Shown here one piece after another: positions 47,532-55,615 of a DNA stretch of 64,000 nt; position 1 is the stretch's first letter; each line of letters starts with the position of its first letter. The stretch comes from a phage. The notes beneath the pieces were generated by a model. The model worked only from the letters and a program-made list of their open reading frames with translations. It was not told where the DNA came from and made no database searches. Location of the stretch: the NCBI GenBank assembly GCA_025812035.1, contig GCA_025812035.1_4719.1; one strand, given 5' to 3'. A program made the position numbers and the translations under genes.

Positions 47532-50336
47532 TTACGCTAATTTACCGAAACCGGCTTTCTGTAGTTTCTCGTTGATCAGTTTTGCTTCAGCGAAAACATA
47601 ATCACGATATGCGGTAACTAACCCATCCACCCGTGAACGCAAGGCTTCTTCGAAGCTATACCACGCAGCGATTTCACGAATCTGAGCGTTGATATAATCA
47701 ACGGTTGAGCGAAGCTCGGTTGCATTTTCTTGCGGGATGGCTTTCACCTGGCGAGCAACGTCATTTAAACGACGGAACTGTGTTTCGATTTCTTTAAACT
47801 TACTGTCAGCAAGTTTGCTGAATTCGTCACCGGAACGAGTAAATAACAGATAGCTGTTGCCATCAAGTGCGGTCGCTAACTGCTGAAGTACATTGGTGTC
47901 CGGATACACAGGAGTACCGCTTTGCAGTACTTTCTCACCGAATTCCGCGAAGTCCTTCGGCGGTAAGTGTGCAGACGTTGTCAATTCGTTGAAACGGAAA
48001 GTCAGCGAACTATCATACAACATCCGGTACGCTTCCATACCCTGTTTCATGGTACCAGCCAGGTTAGCCAGACGCGGAGCAATTTCACCCTCTTTAGCGC
48101 GCTTCTGGTCTTCTAACGCCCCTTCCAGTTCTTTACACTGGTCGTTCAGATACACGATACGATCGGGACGCAGACGACGCATCTCACGAAGAATAGTATC
48201 CAGCTTACCTTCCTGGAAATAACCTAGCGTTAAAGACGTACACGCTTGTTGAAGACGATCGAACACTGGTAAGGTTACCATCTCTTTACGGATACCATCA
48301 ACAATCGCAGAAACAGCCGAAAGTTTCTGTTCTGTGGTTAATGGAACGTCAGAGACCGACTTGCTGGGCGCACCAACAACGTTACGCATTGCGTCGGTAT
48401 CCTCGGTTTTATCAACCTCTTTACGAACATTCTCGTCGGGAACATAAACGTTCGCATTACGTTTTGCCTGTTTGATGGCATCGCTGGCCGCTTTTTCGGT
48501 GGCCGCTACGCTATCGGCACGTTTCTTCAAGAGTTCAATAATCCAAAGCAACAGACGACGAATCGCAGTGTAGGCTGTCGTGATGATGACGCCGATAACA
48601 GCCATCTTCATGATACCGAACGATTCCATGGTCGGCTCTAACGCCTGGTCAGGCATATACCGTTCACGCAGCTCCAGATAGATCTGCTCATCCGGTTTGC
48701 TGATCTCACCACGATGCGAAGTCCGATAGATGGCTTCGTCAATCTCAACAAGATCTTTACGTGCTTGACGGTCTGTTTCGGTCAAATAAGCGCAGCCGGA
48801 TACGTCGTCTTCAAAACTTTCGAACTTAAAGAAATCGACAACCATCTTGGCAAGCGCCTCTTTCTTAGCAGGATCGAGCGTCTTCGCATCTTCTTTTTGC
48901 TTATCCATTTTTTCCTTGAATTTCTCTTTGTAGTCATTCAAGGGTTTTACCGCTCTTGCCCTCAACGCGTTATAGATAGTTTTCCAACTTTCTTCGCGTT
49001 CTAAGATAAGGAAGTAGTTTTTGAGTTCGAAAGCACGGTAACGTGCAACGAGCTGTTCTACCTGAGCATGAGCGAGTTGTACATCCATCAACCAGCGGGA
49101 CAATGCTGAAACCAAACGACTATAAGCAAGCAGCGTTTGATATGTCAGCTTCATGTGTTTCTCGTAGAGTTCAATATCTCCGCCCCGGATATCAGCTGTC
49201 GGGTTCATCTCCTTAGTTGCTTTGAAGACTTGTTCAGCTTCATTCAACACTTGCTCGAACTTGACTTCATTGAACGCGTTGAATGGTTCGGCCAGTTCAT
49301 CCATCTGTTCGTGAAGCTCGCGAACCCAAGCTTCTTTGTGATTACGAATGACCGCATCAGCGTGGAGCACGGTTTGATGTTTCTGTACCCATTCTTCGAC
49401 GATATCTGCCGCTGCAACAACACCCATGTTGTCGGAAATCAACGGAATAACATTGGAGAGCATACCAGCACACGCTGGTGTTTTCCAATGATCGTTTAAC
49501 GCGTTACGGAACGCAATAATGTCCGTCATAGACGTAGTGATATCGAGGAACGTGTTACCGTTACGACTCATGCTTGCGATATTTGCAGCAAACGTCTTTT
49601 GCTGATCTACAACGAATGGAATCAATAGCATCAACCATTCAGCAACGCATTTTGCTTTGTCTTTCAGGTTTTTGTCGGCTATTTCTTTGAGATTGATTGC
49701 GCTACCATAACCCGCAAGTTCGTTATATACGTCGTTCAAGGTCATCTGCTTATCCAGCATTTCTCTGAAACGCGGATAATCTTCCCCTAACGCATCGATG
49801 ACATCTTGGATAACATCGTCAGTTGTGGCGATAAATTTCTTCGCGTCGACTTTAGATTTCCAGACGTGTCGTACCGCTTTCTTGATTCCTTCAAAGATAA
49901 ACGCCCAGATACGCTTGATGAGTTCCCAGACTTTCTTCGCACCATCGACAAACAGTTTAGAGACTTTGGCAACGAATCCTTCCTGCACCAACTCAACGCC
50001 GTTACGTGATGGAATTTCGGTGAAGAAAGCATCCGGCAGTTGTTTCGGGAACGCATCACCAAGACGCATACGCAATTCGGGTACATCGGCACGAGAAATA
50101 CCACGCGTCGTTAGCTGCTCGTGAAGACGAACGTTTTCTTCACCAGAGGCTACGAATTCGTTAACGTCAAATGAAACCAGTTCTTGATCTTCGGTGGTAA
50201 CGACGCTTGAACCATCACTGGTTTGGATGTCTTCGTCAGGGAATGCCATGAGCATACCGTGACGCATTTCAACCACCCCGTAATCGGTTGCTAAACCGAA
50301 TTCGTTGTGATCGGGGGTAATAACTGGGATACTCAT
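47532..50336 (-). CDS. large virion-type protein (934 aa) with two copies of the EGF/ESF + amphipathic-helix motif
   Basis: ORF track; motifs VQEGFVAKVSKLFVDGAKKVWELIKRIWAFIFEGIKK and MESFGIMKMAVIGVIITTAYTAIRRLLLWIIELLKK resemble the paralog family. Confidence 0.6.
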   Translation of the reverse strand: MSIPVITPDHNEFGLATDYGVVEMRHGMLMAFPDEDIQTSDGSSVVTTEDQELVSFDVNEFVASGEENVRLHEQLTTRGISRADVPELRMRLGDAFPKQLPDAFFTEIPSRNGVELVQEGFVAKVSKLFVDGAKKVWELIKRIWAFIFEGIKKAVRHVWKSKVDAKKFIATTDDVIQDVIDALGEDYPRFREMLDKQMTLNDVYNELAGYGSAINLKEIADKNLKDKAKCVAEWLMLLIPFVVDQQKTFAANIASMSRNGNTFLDITTSMTDIIAFRNALNDHWKTPACAGMLSNVIPLISDNMGVVAAADIVEEWVQKHQTVLHADAVIRNHKEAWVRELHEQMDELAEPFNAFNEVKFEQVLNEAEQVFKATKEMNPTADIRGGDIELYEKHMKLTYQTLLAYSRLVSALSRWLMDVQLAHAQVEQLVARYRAFELKNYFLILEREESWKTIYNALRARAVKPLNDYKEKFKEKMDKQKEDAKTLDPAKKEALAKMVVDFFKFESFEDDVSGCAYLTETDRQARKDLVEIDEAIYRTSHRGEISKPDEQIYLELRERYMPDQALEPTMESFGIMKMAVIGVIITTAYTAIRRLLLWIIELLKKRADSVAATEKAASDAIKQAKRNANVYVPDENVRKEVDKTEDTDAMRNVVGAPSKSVSDVPLTTEQKLSAVSAIVDGIRKEMVTLPVFDRLQQACTSLTLGYFQEGKLDTILREMRRLRPDRIVYLNDQCKELEGALEDQKRAKEGEIAPRLANLAGTMKQGMEAYRMLYDSSLTFRFNELTTSAHLPPKDFAEFGEKVLQSGTPVYPDTNVLQQLATALDGNSYLLFTRSGDEFSKLADSKFKEIETQFRRLNDVARQVKAIPQENATELRSTVDYINAQIREIAAWYSFEEALRSRVDGLVTAYRDYVFAEAKLINEKLQKAGFGKLA

Positions 50337-50773
50337 GCATTCTCTCCTTGCAGTGCGTTAGCGAAAGCCGTTGCGAGTTGCGCAACCAGCTTAGGATCAA
50401 CACCTTCGATAACGTCAGGCAGCCCTGCGGTTTCTTGGTCACGAACAGCGGAGGCTAATAACAGCATGGTTTCAGGTGCGGTTGGCTCATGCACCATGCG
50501 GTAACGCAGGCACCAGAAGTAGCGGGCAACGTCTAACGCATCAGTCAGCCCAATAACCAGTACCTTGTTCAGCTTATCCAACCCGTCACGGATTTTAGGG
50601 AGATGTTCACGAACGAAGATGCTATCCGCAGTCAGATCTTCTTTTTCAGCGAATACTGGCATGCTGTAACCGGCGATGTAACCTGCAGCAATACTTAATG
50701 CGCGGGTCTGTTGTTCGGCTGGGAAGTCACGTACCAGGTCTTTCAGCTGAACGGCGAAATCAGAAATATTCAT
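50333..50773 (-). CDS. hypothetical protein (146 aa)
   Basis: ORF track; 4-nt overlap with downstream gene. Confidence 0.55.
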   Translation of the reverse strand: MNISDFAVQLKDLVRDFPAEQQTRALSIAAGYIAGYSMPVFAEKEDLTADSIFVREHLPKIRDGLDKLNKVLVIGLTDALDVARYFWCLRYRMVHEPTAPETMLLLASAVRDQETAGLPDVIEGVDPKLVAQLATAFANALQGENA

Positions 50774-50806: not shown

Positions 50807-52117
50807 TTACGCGACGACAGAGTCGAGTTTCGCTGACACTTTGAACAGATCGTTGTTCATTGTGGAAGAAAGGACTTGTTGAATTTCTTCCTGTTTAACG
50901 GCTTTACGAACCCCAGGGCGAAGGATAAGCGTAACCATCTGTGAGAAGGTACGGTTATTGTTCATCACACTCAGTGTTTCATCGATTGTTTTGATGGTAT
51001 CCAACGTCATGGAACGAACGTCGCTTGGGACATCACGATCTTTCAGACGTATGATTAAATCTTGTTTGATTTTACGGAATCGTTCCATGTCGTTATCGTA
51101 AATGCTGTATGTTGGATCTAACCAAACAGAAAGCGCGGTTACGGCTACAACAACGAACACACCGATAGCGCCAACAGAAGCTAAACCTATCGCCATCATA
51201 GAGGCTATAGTAGCATCCATGATGAAGGAGAGCCAGAACATCGTTTTAGACTTCATGGAGTTGGTACCATAAAGCCGAAACATTTTAGCAAGCCCGCTAA
51301 CAAGATACTCCCCACCACCATGACGCGTAGCGAACTGATCAGCCATGAATTCGGAAGCAACGTCAGTGTATCGTCCAGCATTGTTTACGTTTCTTAACTG
51401 CATTGCTTTGTTAGAAACATAAACCGTATACCAGACACTACCGTCGTCTGAGTCGCTGATTTTGTTTACATCAACGTTAGTATCCAGCGTTTTGTTTAAC
51501 GCTTTAGCCAGTTCGATACGTTTTACTTTATCGGTTGTTCCCAACAGTTCACGCTGTACGGTCATGATCGAGGCTTCGACACGAACCGTTTCCGATAATG
51601 TTTCAAGGAAAGTAAATGCGTGACCGATTTCATGCAGCATTATGGCTGCTTTTTCTTCCGGAAGAAAGGGTTCTGTCGCTGTTAGCAGTTCATACGTGAT
51701 GGCAGAACGAATCTTCAACTCTTCAAAGATCCCGTAAACACGACCTTTTTCTAAATCGACATAACCGACAGGCGTATCTTTAATCTTCTTAAGGAGCGCA
51801 ATACCATCGACACCACGCATCCATAATCGATGATAGTCTGCCATGATTGTGTTGTTTGTCGAAATATCCGGTGGGTATACGTAGGCATTCATCTGACCCA
51901 TTTTCACGTCAACCGAAAATTCGATGTTCAACCCAGTATAGCGTTTAACCATCTCGGTTAAATGGCCGTCCTTGAAAACGTTTAAAACATCTTTTTTATC
52001 CAGTCCCTGTTTGCTTCTGAAGAACTCGGTCATCTCCTTGAACAAAGAGCCATCTTGAAAATTGATGGCCTCCATCTTTAATTCATCATGACCATACACA
52101 CGTTGTAATAATGACAT
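50807..52117 (-). CDS. membrane-associated Zn metalloprotease, M48 (HtpX/Ste24)-like
   Basis: ORF track; HEIGH (HExxH) followed ~95 aa later by SEFMADQFA (E-x-x-A-D-x-x-A type third ligand motif as I recall for M48), then a ~40-aa hydrophobic stretch (MFWLSFIMDATIASMMAIGLASVGAIGVFVVVAVTALSVWL). Confidence 0.55.
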   Translation of the reverse strand: MSLLQRVYGHDELKMEAINFQDGSLFKEMTEFFRSKQGLDKKDVLNVFKDGHLTEMVKRYTGLNIEFSVDVKMGQMNAYVYPPDISTNNTIMADYHRLWMRGVDGIALLKKIKDTPVGYVDLEKGRVYGIFEELKIRSAITYELLTATEPFLPEEKAAIMLHEIGHAFTFLETLSETVRVEASIMTVQRELLGTTDKVKRIELAKALNKTLDTNVDVNKISDSDDGSVWYTVYVSNKAMQLRNVNNAGRYTDVASEFMADQFATRHGGGEYLVSGLAKMFRLYGTNSMKSKTMFWLSFIMDATIASMMAIGLASVGAIGVFVVVAVTALSVWLDPTYSIYDNDMERFRKIKQDLIIRLKDRDVPSDVRSMTLDTIKTIDETLSVMNNNRTFSQMVTLILRPGVRKAVKQEEIQQVLSSTMNNDLFKVSAKLDSVVA

Positions 52118-52338
52118 TGTACACTCTCTAAATTTACGTAAATTTAAGGGCTAACGGATCGGCTGGCCGCACCAATCACAATGTGTTCGTTGCTATGCAA
52201 CGGCATTCATAGAAATACCTTTTGACGGTAACATCACCTTTCACACCCCAAGCAATAAGAGTGGTCGGTTAAAAACAACAGAACGTGAGGATGATATAGA
52301 AATTCACCTTTTAACACCTATTACGAGTTTATCAAGCC

Positions 52339-54090
52339 ATGAGCGAACAAGAACGAAAACCTAAGAAGAAACTGCTCGGTATTCAATGTCGACACATCAG
52401 TTATAACGAAGCGAACGATGGCAGTAAGAACGATCTCATGATTGCAAAAGAGATCATGTTCTTTGATGATAATACGCAGGCAACGAACCTTCGATTCTTC
52501 GAGAATTACAAACGTCCATTTTGGGTGACGGTAGAGAGTAAACGTAAGAACAAATATAAAAAGGAAAGCGAGAAGCTCTCGCATGTACGTCGCTATGATG
52601 TCCGTCAAAGTGAACTGGTCGATAAAATCAGTTCGGTGCTTTATAAAAGACGTGCTGATGATAACACCCGCTTACAACAGCTCGCACGGAGTCCATACCT
52701 CTATGGAACGGACGTTAGCGCTAGCTGTTATTTAAAAACCCAATACAATACAAAATGGCCGGAATACGCCGATAAATTACCTGCCACCATCGCATGTTTC
52801 GATATCGAAACCGACGTTGTTCATGGGCACGGTAAGATCGTTTGTATGTCTATTACAATGGGCTACAATGCGATACTTTGCTATACCAAGGACTTCGTTG
52901 GTCATATTCCGAATGCGATCGAGAAAACCCACGAGAAGATTCGATATTACCTGGCCGAACGTCTGAACACCAAAGAGGATCCTCACGCGTTCGAAAAATA
53001 TCATTACGATGTTCGAATCGTAGAAAGCCCAGCACAAGCGGTCATCCAATGCATGCAGAAGGTTCACGAATGGCAGCCGGATTATCTCCTTGGCTGGAAT
53101 ATCGCGTTCGATATTCCACGTATGCTCCAGGCGCTGAACGAGGAAGGGTATCGTCCCGAGGATGTTTTCTCCGATCCTCGCGTACCCCCTAAGTATCGCA
53201 TTGCTCGCTGGGTACCACCGAAGACCGACAAGGTATCTGCTTCAGGTCGTAAAACCAACCTTACCCTTGAGCAGACCTGGCCGATGTTTTATACGATGGC
53301 TACATACCAGGTTATGGATGCGATGTGTGGTTATAAGTTCGTTCGTTTAGGAAGACCGGATGAAGGACGTTATTCACTCGATGCGGTGTTAGAGCGTAAT
53401 AAATGTCATACGAAACTAAAAGCGATTCCTGGTACAGAAGGGTTCACGGAGCTCGCCTGGCACGAAGAGATGCAAACGAACCATCAAATCGACTACGGCG
53501 TATATAACCTTTGGGATAACCAAGGTATTGAGGCATTGGACCAGAAAACAAAAGACTATTCGATGACCATCCCTATTCGTTTAGCGGCGTCGGATTTGAA
53601 AGATTTCAGTTCCAACCCTAAACGTATCTGTGATAAACTTTTCTTCGTTTATCTTAACCGTGGGGAAGTCATGGGATGCACCGCCGACGACATGACCCAG
53701 GAAGAAGATAAATGGGTTATCTCACGAGCAGGACATATCGTCACATTACCATGCGATCTCATGGCAGACAACGGCATACATCTCTTCTGGGATATGCCGA
53801 ACTTGAGAAGTTATATCCGTCTATTCGTTGCAGACCTTGACATAAGCAGTTCATACCCGAATGGGCAGATCCTGCTCAATCTATCCAGGGCGTGTGTTTT
53901 TCGTGAGCTCTCACGTATTGAGGGCGTCTCTGACTATCAATTCAGGAAGCTAGGTATCAACTTTATTACCGGAGGTAAAACGAACGCGGTAGACTTCTGT
54001 AGAATCGTTTATAAAGCACCATCGATGTTCGAACTCTTAGAACATTTCGATGCGACGCGTCCGAAAGAGGAAGCGCGAACCATCGAATGA
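52339..54090 (+). CDS. family B DNA polymerase, N-terminal part (3'-5' exonuclease domain plus palm motif A); motifs B and C not encoded here
   Basis: ORF track; Exo I ACFDIETD, Exo II LGWNIAFDIPRM, Exo III YGVYNLWD, motif A-like DLDISSSYPNG (cf. DxxSLYPS); ORF ends ~70 aa after motif A with no YGDTDS-type motif; followed by a hairpin and T-rich tract. Confidence 0.6.
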   Translation: MSEQERKPKKKLLGIQCRHISYNEANDGSKNDLMIAKEIMFFDDNTQATNLRFFENYKRPFWVTVESKRKNKYKKESEKLSHVRRYDVRQSELVDKISSVLYKRRADDNTRLQQLARSPYLYGTDVSASCYLKTQYNTKWPEYADKLPATIACFDIETDVVHGHGKIVCMSITMGYNAILCYTKDFVGHIPNAIEKTHEKIRYYLAERLNTKEDPHAFEKYHYDVRIVESPAQAVIQCMQKVHEWQPDYLLGWNIAFDIPRMLQALNEEGYRPEDVFSDPRVPPKYRIARWVPPKTDKVSASGRKTNLTLEQTWPMFYTMATYQVMDAMCGYKFVRLGRPDEGRYSLDAVLERNKCHTKLKAIPGTEGFTELAWHEEMQTNHQIDYGVYNLWDNQGIEALDQKTKDYSMTIPIRLAASDLKDFSSNPKRICDKLFFVYLNRGEVMGCTADDMTQEEDKWVISRAGHIVTLPCDLMADNGIHLFWDMPNLRSYIRLFVADLDISSSYPNGQILLNLSRACVFRELSRIEGVSDYQFRKLGINFITGGKTNAVDFCRIVYKAPSMFELLEHFDATRPKEEARTIE

Positions 54091-54170: not shown

Positions 54171-54188
54171 TGGAGGTTTTATGTGTTT

Positions 54189-54638
54189 TTAATTATTATT
54201 GGTGGGGTTATCGTCCGGTTTATATTCAATGCCGTAGGCGACGTAACGGTCTGTTGTATGGACGACAAGCGAGATAGGGAAATCATAATGCATAGTTTTG
54301 TCTCGAACGAGCTGAGTAAAGAGATCCATATAACGTATTAAGTCTTCACTGGTGTAATCAGAAGGGAAGAAGACATCGATGGTTATTGAATCTTCATAGA
54401 GGCGTACGACCAACTTATCCAGAAGGTCGGCATATTGGTTAGCCGGGGTGACGTCCATCTGACAGATGCCACGATCTCCTTCGTCTCGCGATACCCACAT
54501 CGTGGTATCCTGTAATGAGGTTTCAAGGATCTCGAAAATACATTTTGCTGTAAGTCTTAGTTTATTTGTTACGTCATGGTTAGGTGAATAATGGTCACGG
54601 ATGTTTTTCACTGCGTCTTTGATAGAGAAAGTCATCAT
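54189..54638 (-). CDS. small acidic protein, member 1 of tandem paralog array (149 aa)
   Basis: ORF track; C-terminal signature HYDFPISLVVHTTDRYVAYGIEYKPDDNP shared with neighbours. Confidence 0.6.
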   Translation of the reverse strand: MMTFSIKDAVKNIRDHYSPNHDVTNKLRLTAKCIFEILETSLQDTTMWVSRDEGDRGICQMDVTPANQYADLLDKLVVRLYEDSITIDVFFPSDYTSEDLIRYMDLFTQLVRDKTMHYDFPISLVVHTTDRYVAYGIEYKPDDNPTNNN

Positions 54639-54648
54639 TGATGCTCCT

Positions 54649-55158
54649 TCAAATGAAATTAATACGTGCGGCTGTCGAAACGAGTTCGCTTGTAAAGCAA
54701 TGCTTACCGTCGGGATTTACCGTGTGGGTAAGTTTACAAACCTTAGCGGCAGGGTTAGCGCCGATGACAAGGACGGTCGTCATATCGAACAGTTCCACAC
54801 GTTGAAGAAATGCCGTATCGGCTACCTTCTGTAAACCGGTTGCTTCAAAATCGATGTGGTCGTTAAGAGGCACCAATTGGATTTCAATACGTTCTTTGAA
54901 AAGTTTAAACGTTACTGAAAACCGATGAGGTTCGGCATTAAGCCATAAAGGTCCGCGTTGGAAGTGCTGATATGCTTCATTCGCGGTGTTCTCGAAAACC
55001 CAGCAGTCGTGGACAAGAGAAGCCTCTTGTAACGATGATTCCAGGTAGTCAAATACCTTGTTTATCGTTTTCTCAAGCATAGGTGCTAGTGAACCAGGGT
55101 ATCCAGCAAATGCTGCTTCGGCAATCGATTTTATTGATACGATGTTGTTCTGACTCAT
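54649..55158 (-). CDS. small protein, member 2 of tandem paralog array (~169 aa)
   Basis: ORF track 54649..55185; ATG 55156-55158 with AAGGAA SD; N-terminal helix LEKTINKVFDYLESSL and FDMTTVLVIG…VNPDG weak family signature. Confidence 0.5.
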   Translation of the reverse strand: MSQNNIVSIKSIAEAAFAGYPGSLAPMLEKTINKVFDYLESSLQEASLVHDCWVFENTANEAYQHFQRGPLWLNAEPHRFSVTFKLFKERIEIQLVPLNDHIDFEATGLQKVADTAFLQRVELFDMTTVLVIGANPAAKVCKLTHTVNPDGKHCFTSELVSTAARINFI

Positions 55159-55162
55159 TTCT

Positions 55163-55615
55163 TTATTCCTTGTTGGCTTCTTCAATGTACTTGGTGTCGT
55201 AAGACAAATGCTGAATTAATTTTCTAGGCTCGATGAAAATACGACACGTGATAAACACATCAGGGTTGTATTGTTCCACGCAACGTCCGAAGGCTTGTTT
55301 TGCGGCGTGACGCATCAACACTAATTCCCGATCGTTCATCTCATCATCAAATTCGATATGTATCGTGATTTTATCGGGAAATAAATAGATAGAGTAATCG
55401 CTACCAATACCGTCGTCGTCAAAGCGATAATCGTTGTGGTAATGGTGAAGTTTACCTTCGTGTACCGTCTGGTACCACCCGACGATACTATCAAGACCCA
55501 TACCCAGGCGTCCGAATGCCTGATTAATAATATCCTCGACGACGGATGCGGGGGTGGGACCATTGAACAATCTATCCAGACGTTTTTTCATCGATTTGTC
55601 TGTTTTCACATTCAT
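55163..55615 (-). CDS. small protein, member 3 of tandem paralog array (~150 aa)
   Basis: ORF track 55163..55666; ATG 55613-55615 with AGGAA SD avoids the hairpin at ~55646-55681; C-terminal FITCRIFIEP…. Confidence 0.5.
   Translation of the reverse strand: MNVKTDKSMKKRLDRLFNGPTPASVVEDIINQAFGRLGMGLDSIVGWYQTVHEGKLHHYHNDYRFDDDGIGSDYSIYLFPDKITIHIEFDDEMNDRELVLMRHAAKQAFGRCVEQYNPDVFITCRIFIEPRKLIQHLSYDTKYIEEANKE

Follow-up and report, generated by a model that had tools for sequence, protein, structure and literature searches.

The DNA analysed here, hereafter the window, is a 64,000-nucleotide stretch of the phage contig GCA_025812035.1_4719.1 (NCBI GenBank assembly GCA_025812035.1), and its source genome is a Goslar-like chimallivirus. 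The minus-strand open reading frame (ORF) 50807..52117, which starts with ATG, encodes a protein of 436 amino acids that we identify from its motifs and profiles as a divergent M48-like gluzincin, lying beyond the curated boundary of Pfam and carrying a Tyr-for-His variant of the C-terminal motif. Its gene, cg22, is a conserved core gene and apparently essential, and in related phages the product is a head protein trimmed by the prohead protease. We propose, with a probability of about one half, that it is packaged as an active protease, ejected together with the DNA, and anchored in the early infection (EPI) vesicle or in the inner membrane, where it would cleave its substrate.

The catalytic core and its relationship to M48 peptidases

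The protein matches PHROG 2767, a family without assigned function, over residues 13-432 (E 1.1e-81), and is 91-92% identical to Goslar gp67, which is annotated as hypothetical (gp067) in the Goslar record. A tblastn search located the gene in 245 records of phages from throughout the phiKZ-like group, and annotated context identifies phiKZ gp84, PhiPA3 gp086, 201phi2-1 gp145, EL gp052 and SPN3US gp45 as orthologs. It corresponds to the core gene cg22 of Prichard et al., described by these authors as a 'putative virion structural protein'. The whole family includes 3,978 representatives at 50% identity (E ≤ 1e-3), and the best 150 of the 3,978 are all true members. In the window and in five of five orthologous loci inspected (Goslar, the phiKZ-type KTN4, PhiPA3, SPN3US and PCH45), the gene adjoins that of the DNA polymerase and is located upstream of the gp85-like and gp86-like genes. 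The window protein does not differ in kind from the cg22 orthologs (Goslar gp67, phiKZ gp84, SPN3US gp45, PhiPA3 gp086 and 201phi2-1 gp145), with which it shares synteny, length, motifs and a hydrophobic hairpin; the window copy departs from the otherwise invariant N-terminus by T14K and K19N, and its hairpin is strongly diverged.

The original prediction, made from the DNA letters, had associated HEIGH and a SEFMADQFA segment about 95 residues further on with the HExxH and ExxAD motifs of M48 peptidases, and this reading is borne out: SEFMADQFA begins at residue 255, and H162 and E256 are 94 residues apart. None of the residues H162, E163, G165, H166, E256 and D260 varies among 40 homologs, whose identities go down to 21%, and the two motifs are therefore not due to chance. 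HExxH occurs in 210/210 full-length relatives, E..[AS]D in 204/210, and the C-terminal [Y/H]x5R in 203/210, with Tyr at motif position 340 in 188 and His in eight of these 203. The spacing between Y340 and R346 (six residues) is the same as between H246 and R252 of BepA, and the invariant R346 aligns to BepA R252.

Profile searches lead to the same family. Peptidase_M48 (PF01435) is matched by 23/40 relatives at E ≤ 1 (best E 2.5e-5), whereas no other Pfam family is matched by more than three. The M48-like metalloprotease proposed originally is thus supported at the motif, profile and fold levels; the window protein itself stays below the Pfam cutoff. Scattered matches to HtpX and LoiP were observed among family members in NCBIfam. 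The MPTase-PolyVal family (PF18818) was matched by one of the 40 relatives, with an E of 0.083, and the Pfam search returned no match to it for the window protein. Comparison of the family profile with all PDB sequences retrieved ZMPSTE24 (E 1.4e-3), with HExxH placed on H335-H339 and E256 on E415 (SRRFEFQADAFA); in ZMPSTE24, these positions supply all three ligands of the zinc as well as the catalytic Glu. A single-sequence phmmer search of the PDB with the window protein gave nothing useful.

The family was also aligned with hhalign to a profile of E. coli BepA, LoiP, YcaL and HtpX. Without masking, only the strand and the HExxH helix were aligned (85% probability, E 6e-6), and the same two elements, and no others, were aligned with HtpX. 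When residues 183-246 and 286-334 were masked as family-specific segments, a continuous block of 105 columns was obtained (88-92% probability, E 3e-6 to 8e-7), which extends from the strand through HExxH, ExxAD and the next helix to the C-terminal motif with R346. The strand in question, residues 135-141, aligns with the M48 strand that precedes HExxH. Alignments with a relaxed mact setting were also tried and were rejected, as the resulting global alignments were meaningless.

The AlphaFold model of the protein has a predicted local distance difference test (pLDDT) score of 79 and a predicted template modelling (pTM) score of 0.81. In a fold search of viral predicted structures, the significant matches beyond orthologs are an AR9 'zincin protease' (E 3e-6 and 8e-5), as well as entries named 'Peptidase M48 domain-containing protein' and 'beta-barrel assembly-enhancing protease'. 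Relative to the M48 peptidases (Ste24/ZMPSTE24, HtpX, BepA, LoiP, YcaL, Oma1; PF01435), the window protein has two large insertions, residues 183-246 and the 291-334 hairpin, and it has neither the N-terminal transmembrane (TM) helices of HtpX, nor the 7-TM chamber of Ste24, nor the TPR domain of BepA. Also unlike these peptidases, the family is packaged in the capsid, as seen in orthologs, with a propeptide that is cut by the prohead protease.

Judged by this pattern of conservation, the window protein is almost certainly active as a protease. A catalytically dead structural protein that keeps the protease fold would agree with the prevailing annotation as 'virion structural protein', and with the C-terminal motif, in which Tyr stands where M48 peptidases canonically have His, but we consider it very unlikely: the zinc ligands and the catalytic Glu are kept in 204-210 of 210 divergent relatives, and the catalytic region is under the strongest purifying selection of the gene, with a ratio of nonsynonymous to synonymous divergence (dN/dS) of 0.01 relative to the Goslar-type ortholog.

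Processing and packaging in the virion

The orthologs are components of the phage head. In CsCl-purified Goslar virions, gp067, labelled 'hypothetical protein', was detected by 19 peptides with 46.8% coverage and at ~48 copies (range 32-76) (2026 Goslar virion-structure preprint, bioRxiv 10.64898/2026.04.21.720040, Table S4), and one of these peptides is the active-site helix. SPN3US gp45 is a head protein with an N-terminal propeptide of 20 residues, which is cut off by the prohead protease gp245 (specificity A-X-E), and in the KTN4 record the phiKZ-type ortholog is annotated as 'putative structural head protein'. No cg22 ortholog is present in the ordered capsid models of Goslar (C5 and icosahedral maps) or phiKZ, which fits a mobile, free internal component.

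The cut site of SPN3US gp45 is ...AKAVASE/SIGFQD (the slash marks the cut), and the cut Glu aligns with the invariant E16 of the window protein (...ELKME/AINFQD). In Goslar gp067, the semi-tryptic peptide AIKFQDGSLFKEMTEFFR starts at A17, after ...LTME, with a non-tryptic N-terminus directly past E16, and no peptide of residues 1-16 is found among the Goslar gp067 peptides listed. The P3 position of the site is S/A/T/G in 173/186 relatives (Thr in Goslar), and the reported prohead-protease specificity, S/A/G-X-E, fits these family statistics. By analogy with the orthologs, we infer propeptide removal and a head location for the protein of the window phage.

Residues 1-30 (MSLLQRVYGHDELTMEAIKFQDGSLFKEMT, 52028-52117) are 100% identical in two relatives, P0007 and P0017, that are ~46% identical overall, and the window alone has T14K (at P3) and K19N. 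This identity suggests either that the signal for targeting and cleavage is under unusually strong constraint, or that the 5' segment has recombined.

Two metagenomic relatives, P0181 (839 aa) and P0196 (825 aa), have an N-terminal extension of ~400 residues with weak matches to the capsid-anchoring N-terminal region of the phiKZ internal head proteins (PF12699, E 0.005) and to PhiKZ_gp86 (E 0.007-0.017). With these Pfam values, and a BLASTP E of 0.001 obtained in a tiny database, the support for a fusion is weak. phiKZ gp86 itself weakly matches the PF12699 N-terminal region. A Glu is conserved at the fusion junction (LGIE/GISFQ and ATTE/SISFQ). In gp93 and Tad1, the N-terminus is wedged in the capsid, while the C-terminal cargo is freed by the head protease and then injected; the layout of the fusions mirrors this order of anchor, cut site and cargo, and by analogy weakly suggests a released cargo. 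A third relative, P0203, has a C-terminal extension of 540 aa, for which searches of the extension gave no match. An amphipathic motif resembling one in the P0181 extension was observed at residues 134-161 of the gp65-like protein encoded downstream in the window.

Similar processing is known for other internal proteins. The injected head proteins of phiKZ-like phages (the PF12699 proteins gp93, gp95 and gp97, and Tad1, which is gp184) are likewise head-internal and have an N-terminal segment that is removed at x-x-Glu, and the capsid-targeting sequences of the T4 internal proteins are comparable in length to the short cg22 propeptide. In contrast, the cg22 fold, that of a protease, is unrelated to these proteins, and many of them are dispensable, whereas cg22 is apparently essential.

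A hydrophobic hairpin inserted in the M48 core

The sole hydrophobic segment detected by hydropathy in the window protein spans residues ~292-334 (43 residues), with a peak Kyte-Doolittle (KD) 19-residue mean of 2.52, and this analysis found no N-terminal TM helix or signal peptide. In the AlphaFold model the segment forms two helices, residues 291-313 and 317-332. A hydrophobic segment is present between ExxAD and YDx4R in 199/210 relatives, and its sequence conservation is the lowest in the protein. The distance from the ExxAD Glu to the C-terminal H/Y is 45 residues in BepA and 84 in the window protein, and the hairpin is therefore an insertion of ~40 residues in the canonical M48 core.

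Relative to the 92%-identical Goslar-type ortholog, 19 of the 35 substitutions fall within the 44 residues of the hairpin (Fisher p = 3e-12), which is changed at 43% of its positions, compared with 0% in residues 151-290. The nucleotide identity is 67% in the hairpin and 93% in the rest of the gene, and the catalytic region has a dN/dS of 0.01, the hairpin one of 0.31. Synonymous divergence (dS) is raised across the whole 3' third of the gene (codons 291-436, 50807-51247), with values of 0.78-1.0 versus 0.33-0.41 in the 5' two-thirds, and these sequence comparisons suggest that the protease gene is likely a recombination mosaic. Positive selection on the hairpin was considered and rejected, given that dN/dS is 0.31 and dS is also raised, which points to relaxed constraint with possible mosaicism. 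A conserved composition combined with a free sequence is typical of lipid-facing helices, and by its substitution pattern the hairpin appears to evolve like a lipid-facing segment.

The membrane protease foreseen in the original prediction is thus retained in part. The hydrophobic segment is real and its position conserved, but the protein does not have the integral architecture of HtpX or Ste24, because it lacks both a signal peptide and an N-terminal TM helix, and what it has is a single hairpin C-terminal to ExxAD. A protease synthesised in the infected host cell and active in its cytoplasmic membrane, for example in superinfection exclusion or in the processing of envelope proteins, would be in line with the hydrophobic segment and the M48 relationship. 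We judge this role highly improbable: purified virions contain the orthologs in abundance, and the prohead protease trims them; a signal peptide and N-terminal TM helix are lacking; the gene belongs to a late structural operon with capsid genes; and exclusion genes do not typically behave as core, essential genes. Superinfection exclusion is usually an accessory, dispensable function. The suggestion that the protein acts in exclusion is unlikely to hold, since cg22 belongs to the core genes, its phiKZ ortholog is intolerant to insertions, and the orthologs are virion head proteins.

Conservation and requirement of the gene

In the phiKZ transposon screen, PHIKZ084 had 0 insertions over 1,242 bp after trimming, compared with a genome-wide density of one per 42 bp, and gp85, gp86 and gp87 are also at zero. 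The raw table of this screen lists 10 reads at 9 sites for PHIKZ084, and thousands of reads for dispensable genes. The PCH45 ortholog, the 14th coding sequence (CDS), is not among the non-essential core genes named by the authors of the PCH45 transposon sequencing, in the part of their report that could be consulted, from which its essentiality may indirectly be deduced.

Two entries of the BFVD structure database, A0A172JHV9 and A0A172JI27, are 'zincin protease' proteins of Bacillus phage AR9 and significant structural matches to the window protein. These model-based matches suggest that the protease family is probably older than the chimallin-encoding phages, and the family may have been duplicated in AR9.

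Phage-encoded zincin proteases are also found as MPTase-PolyVal modules, which share this character with the window protein and with the AR9 'zincin protease'. These modules belong to injected polyvalent proteins of phages and plasmids, and are delivered into the recipient cell. The polyvalent proteins are giant and multidomain, whereas the window protein is a stand-alone protein of 436 aa with a hydrophobic hairpin. An injected anti-defence protease similar to these modules, which would destroy host immunity or stress proteins right after ejection, is nevertheless conceivable for a protease packaged in the head: injected head-packaged anti-defence proteins are known in the group (e.g., Tad1, phiKZ gp184), and one family member faintly matches MPTase-PolyVal. 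Such a function is improbable for a universal core gene that tolerates no insertions in the laboratory host, where tad1-type genes are dispensable; it leaves the membrane-type hairpin unexplained, and the profile support is 23/40 for M48 versus 1/40 for MPTase-PolyVal.

A proposed role in early infection

We propose that a zinc metalloprotease built on an M48 catalytic core is synthesised in precursor form and directed into the prohead, where the prohead protease would trim it after Glu16, and that about 50 free copies of the trimmed enzyme would be carried inside the capsid. On ejection, the protease would leave the capsid with the DNA, and the hairpin would insert into a host-derived membrane, either the EPI vesicle or the inner membrane, from which the anchored enzyme may cleave a host or a co-injected substrate. 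The orthologs are located in the virion, and any membrane insertion therefore has to follow ejection. This proposal draws on observations made with the window protein or with its orthologs, namely the motif invariance, the M48 relationship, the virion copies, the cut after Glu, the core status, the intolerance to insertions, and the operon shared with genes of the vertex-binding complex (VBC). A more specific version, which we put forward tentatively and regard as rather doubtful, is that the ejected protease acts on the membrane of the EPI vesicle. Its substrates would be inner-membrane proteins of the host or PF12699 proteins injected along with it, and their cleavage would serve to form the vesicle, to keep it stable or to open it for the passage of the genome into the chimallin nucleus.

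Several observations weigh against the proposed packaging, ejection and membrane anchoring of an active M48 protease. The window protein scores 11.4 bits (E 0.28) with Pfam Peptidase_M48 PF01435, below the gathering cutoff of 20.3, and the Foldseek search of the PDB, which ranks BepA and ZMPSTE24 first, gives an E of about 0.9, which is not significant. In the window phage the P3 residue of the cleavage site is Lys, an atypical residue present in 1/186 relatives. Eight phiKZ proteins have been proven to be injected, and gp84 is not among these eight. The zero insertions in PHIKZ084 could reflect polarity on the downstream gp85 and gp86 genes. The virions of phiKZ and PhiPA3 are unstained by a membrane dye, and the hairpin must therefore be shielded by protein inside the capsid, whether or not the protease is later ejected. 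The hairpin could also be a mere protein-protein interface: the gp65-like VBC protein of the window (47532-50336), which is capsid-internal, has a hydrophobic segment at residues 574-592 (KD 1.68, GIMKMAVIGVIITTAYTAI), and hydrophobic helices in head proteins therefore need not mean membrane insertion. Finally, a capsid role at the vertex would be just as consistent with the gene order, the operon and a copy number close to 55.

Such a role would be that of a vertex-associated or prohead-resident protease that is not ejected and aids head maturation, for example by degrading fragments of propeptides or scaffold, with the hairpin as a protein anchor in or near the VBC. We hold this to be possible, with a smaller but appreciable likelihood. 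The operon of protease, gp85-like and gp86-like genes is kept in the window, Goslar, KTN4, PhiPA3, SPN3US and PCH45, the fusions carry gp86/PF12699-like N-terminal regions, and the heads of these phages undergo massive proteolysis, with many fragments. The ~48 copies of gp67 are near 55 (five per vertex at 11 vertices) and are compatible with one copy per VBC unit without proving it, as true 55-copy VBC proteins read 16-194 by the same label-free quantification. An unassigned helical density is present in Goslar beside gp65 at each vertex (bioRxiv 10.64898/2026.04.21.720040, Fig. S8), but its authors call it PF12699-like, the protease is unresolved in the Goslar C5 and icosahedral maps, and gp84 is unmentioned in the phiKZ capsid-structure paper. 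Moreover, 14/14 mapped head cleavage sites of SPN3US fit the A-X-E specificity of gp245, with no second specificity visible, and a 43% residue change in the hairpin between 92%-identical orthologs is unexpected for a tightly packed interface.

As an observation on the Goslar map, gp67 is a candidate for the vertex density, being encoded in the same operon and having a compatible copy number; the authors liken this density to the PF12699 fold.

Features and genomic setting

The features of the protein and of its locus are collected in Table 1. The divergence from the DNA polymerase gene across 221 bp, already noted in the original prediction, is exact (52118-52338). The polymerase ORF, 52339..54090 on the plus strand, matches PHROG 3011 'DNA polymerase' with an E of 4e-178. 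On the other side of the protease gene, the ATGA overlap between the two VBC genes indicates a tight operon. phiKZ-like phages use their own RNA polymerases for transcription.

Table 1 Features of the M48-like metalloprotease and its locus in the window (aa, amino acids)
Feature	Coordinates	Strand	Remarks
CDS, M48-like zinc metalloprotease, 436 aa	50807..52117	-	Ortholog of Goslar gp67, phiKZ gp84, SPN3US gp45 and PhiPA3 gp086; core gene cg22; PHROG 2767
Putative N-terminal targeting propeptide, residues 1-16 (MSLLQRVYGHDELKME)	52070..52117	-	Ends at invariant Glu16, the predicted prohead-protease site
N-terminal alpha/beta region, residues 17-150, beta-sheet of the zincin fold	51668..52069	-	AlphaFold2 strands 64-70, 78-81, 119-121, 126-128 and 135-141
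HEIGH, residues 162-166, two zinc-ligand His and catalytic Glu on the active-site helix	51620..51634	-	Invariant; aligns to ZMPSTE24 H335-H339 and E. coli M48 H136-H140
Helical insertion specific to the family, separating the HExxH helix from the ExxAD helix, residues 183-246	51380..51571	-	His-to-Glu distance 94 aa here, 65 in BepA and 80 in ZMPSTE24
EFMAD, residues 256-260, ExxAD motif; Glu256 predicted third zinc ligand	51338..51352	-	Aligns to ZMPSTE24 E415 and E. coli M48 E201/A204/D205
Hydrophobic helical hairpin, residues 291-334, ~40-aa insertion in the M48 core	51116..51247	-	KD peak, masked hhalign and spacings
YDNDMER, residues 340-346, counterpart of the M48 C-terminal HPxxxxR, with Tyr for His	51080..51100	-	R346 invariant; Y340 and D341 at at least 90%
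C-terminal helical domain, residues 347-436, ending in conserved NNDLF	50810..51079	-	Alignment and AlphaFold2
Divergent intergenic region between protease and DNA polymerase genes, 221 bp	52118..52338		GAGAG, resembling a Shine-Dalgarno element, precedes the ATG of the protease gene
Downstream gene 1, 146 aa, ortholog of Goslar gp66 and phiKZ gp85, VBC protein	50333..50773	-	33 bp past the protease stop codon
Downstream gene 2, 934 aa, ortholog of Goslar gp65 and phiKZ gp86, VBC protein	47532..50336	-	4-bp ATGA overlap with downstream gene 1

The DNA polymerase gene (52339-54090) is unbroken in the window and encodes 583 aa, whereas its Goslar homolog holds an insertion of 1,784 bp with a NUMOD1/HNH homing-endonuclease gene, gp069. 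The insertion point corresponds to the junction 53831/53854 of the window, where ~22 bp are unalignable, as expected around a homing site. Beyond the polymerase gene, positions 54184-55140 have no blastn match to the matching Goslar region, while the flanks match at 87-94%, and this stretch is a variable accessory region adjoining the polymerase. It has small minus-strand ORFs (54189-54638 and 54649-55185), among a run of four small ORFs that show no clear paralogy (best pairwise E 0.034).

Discussion

The family has so far been known as a virion protein; new are its M48 core with a hairpin insertion, the Tyr variant of the C-terminal motif, the capsid-targeting propeptide and the packaging of this protease in the virion. 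A few GenBank and UniProt records bear the names 'M48 family lipoprotein protease', 'beta-barrel assembly-enhancing protease', 'peptidase' or 'zincin protease'. In the searchable literature, where the family is treated as 'virion structural protein', we found no discussion of the protease identity of cg22 or of its membrane-type hairpin, and no M48 protease of a jumbo phage was found in the literature searched. A protease, a peptidase or gp84 is mentioned neither in the 2025 Annual Review on nucleus-forming phages, the only one of the two reviews searched for membrane proteins, nor in the 2026 jumbo-phage review, and gp84 is unmentioned in the papers on the EPI vesicle, on interaction proteomics and on the antisense screen.

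Nucleus-forming phages start infection inside a lipid vesicle, and the formation of this vesicle, its content and the exit of the genome from it are open questions. Their capsids deliver dozens of proteins, most of them without known biochemistry, and the cg22 product appears to be one of a small number of packaged proteins for which an enzymatic activity is clearly predicted, to which a membrane-type hairpin is added. The gene is universal in the family, reaches AR9-like phages and looks essential, and the protease offers a concrete, mutable handle on early-infection biology, as well as a possible target for blocking defence-resistant phages. Should its action be confined to the capsid, the assembly of giant-phage heads would turn out to involve a second proteolytic activity. 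If, on the other hand, the proposed action on the EPI vesicle is true, this would be the first case of a phage organelle shown to be controlled by a membrane protease that the virion carries.

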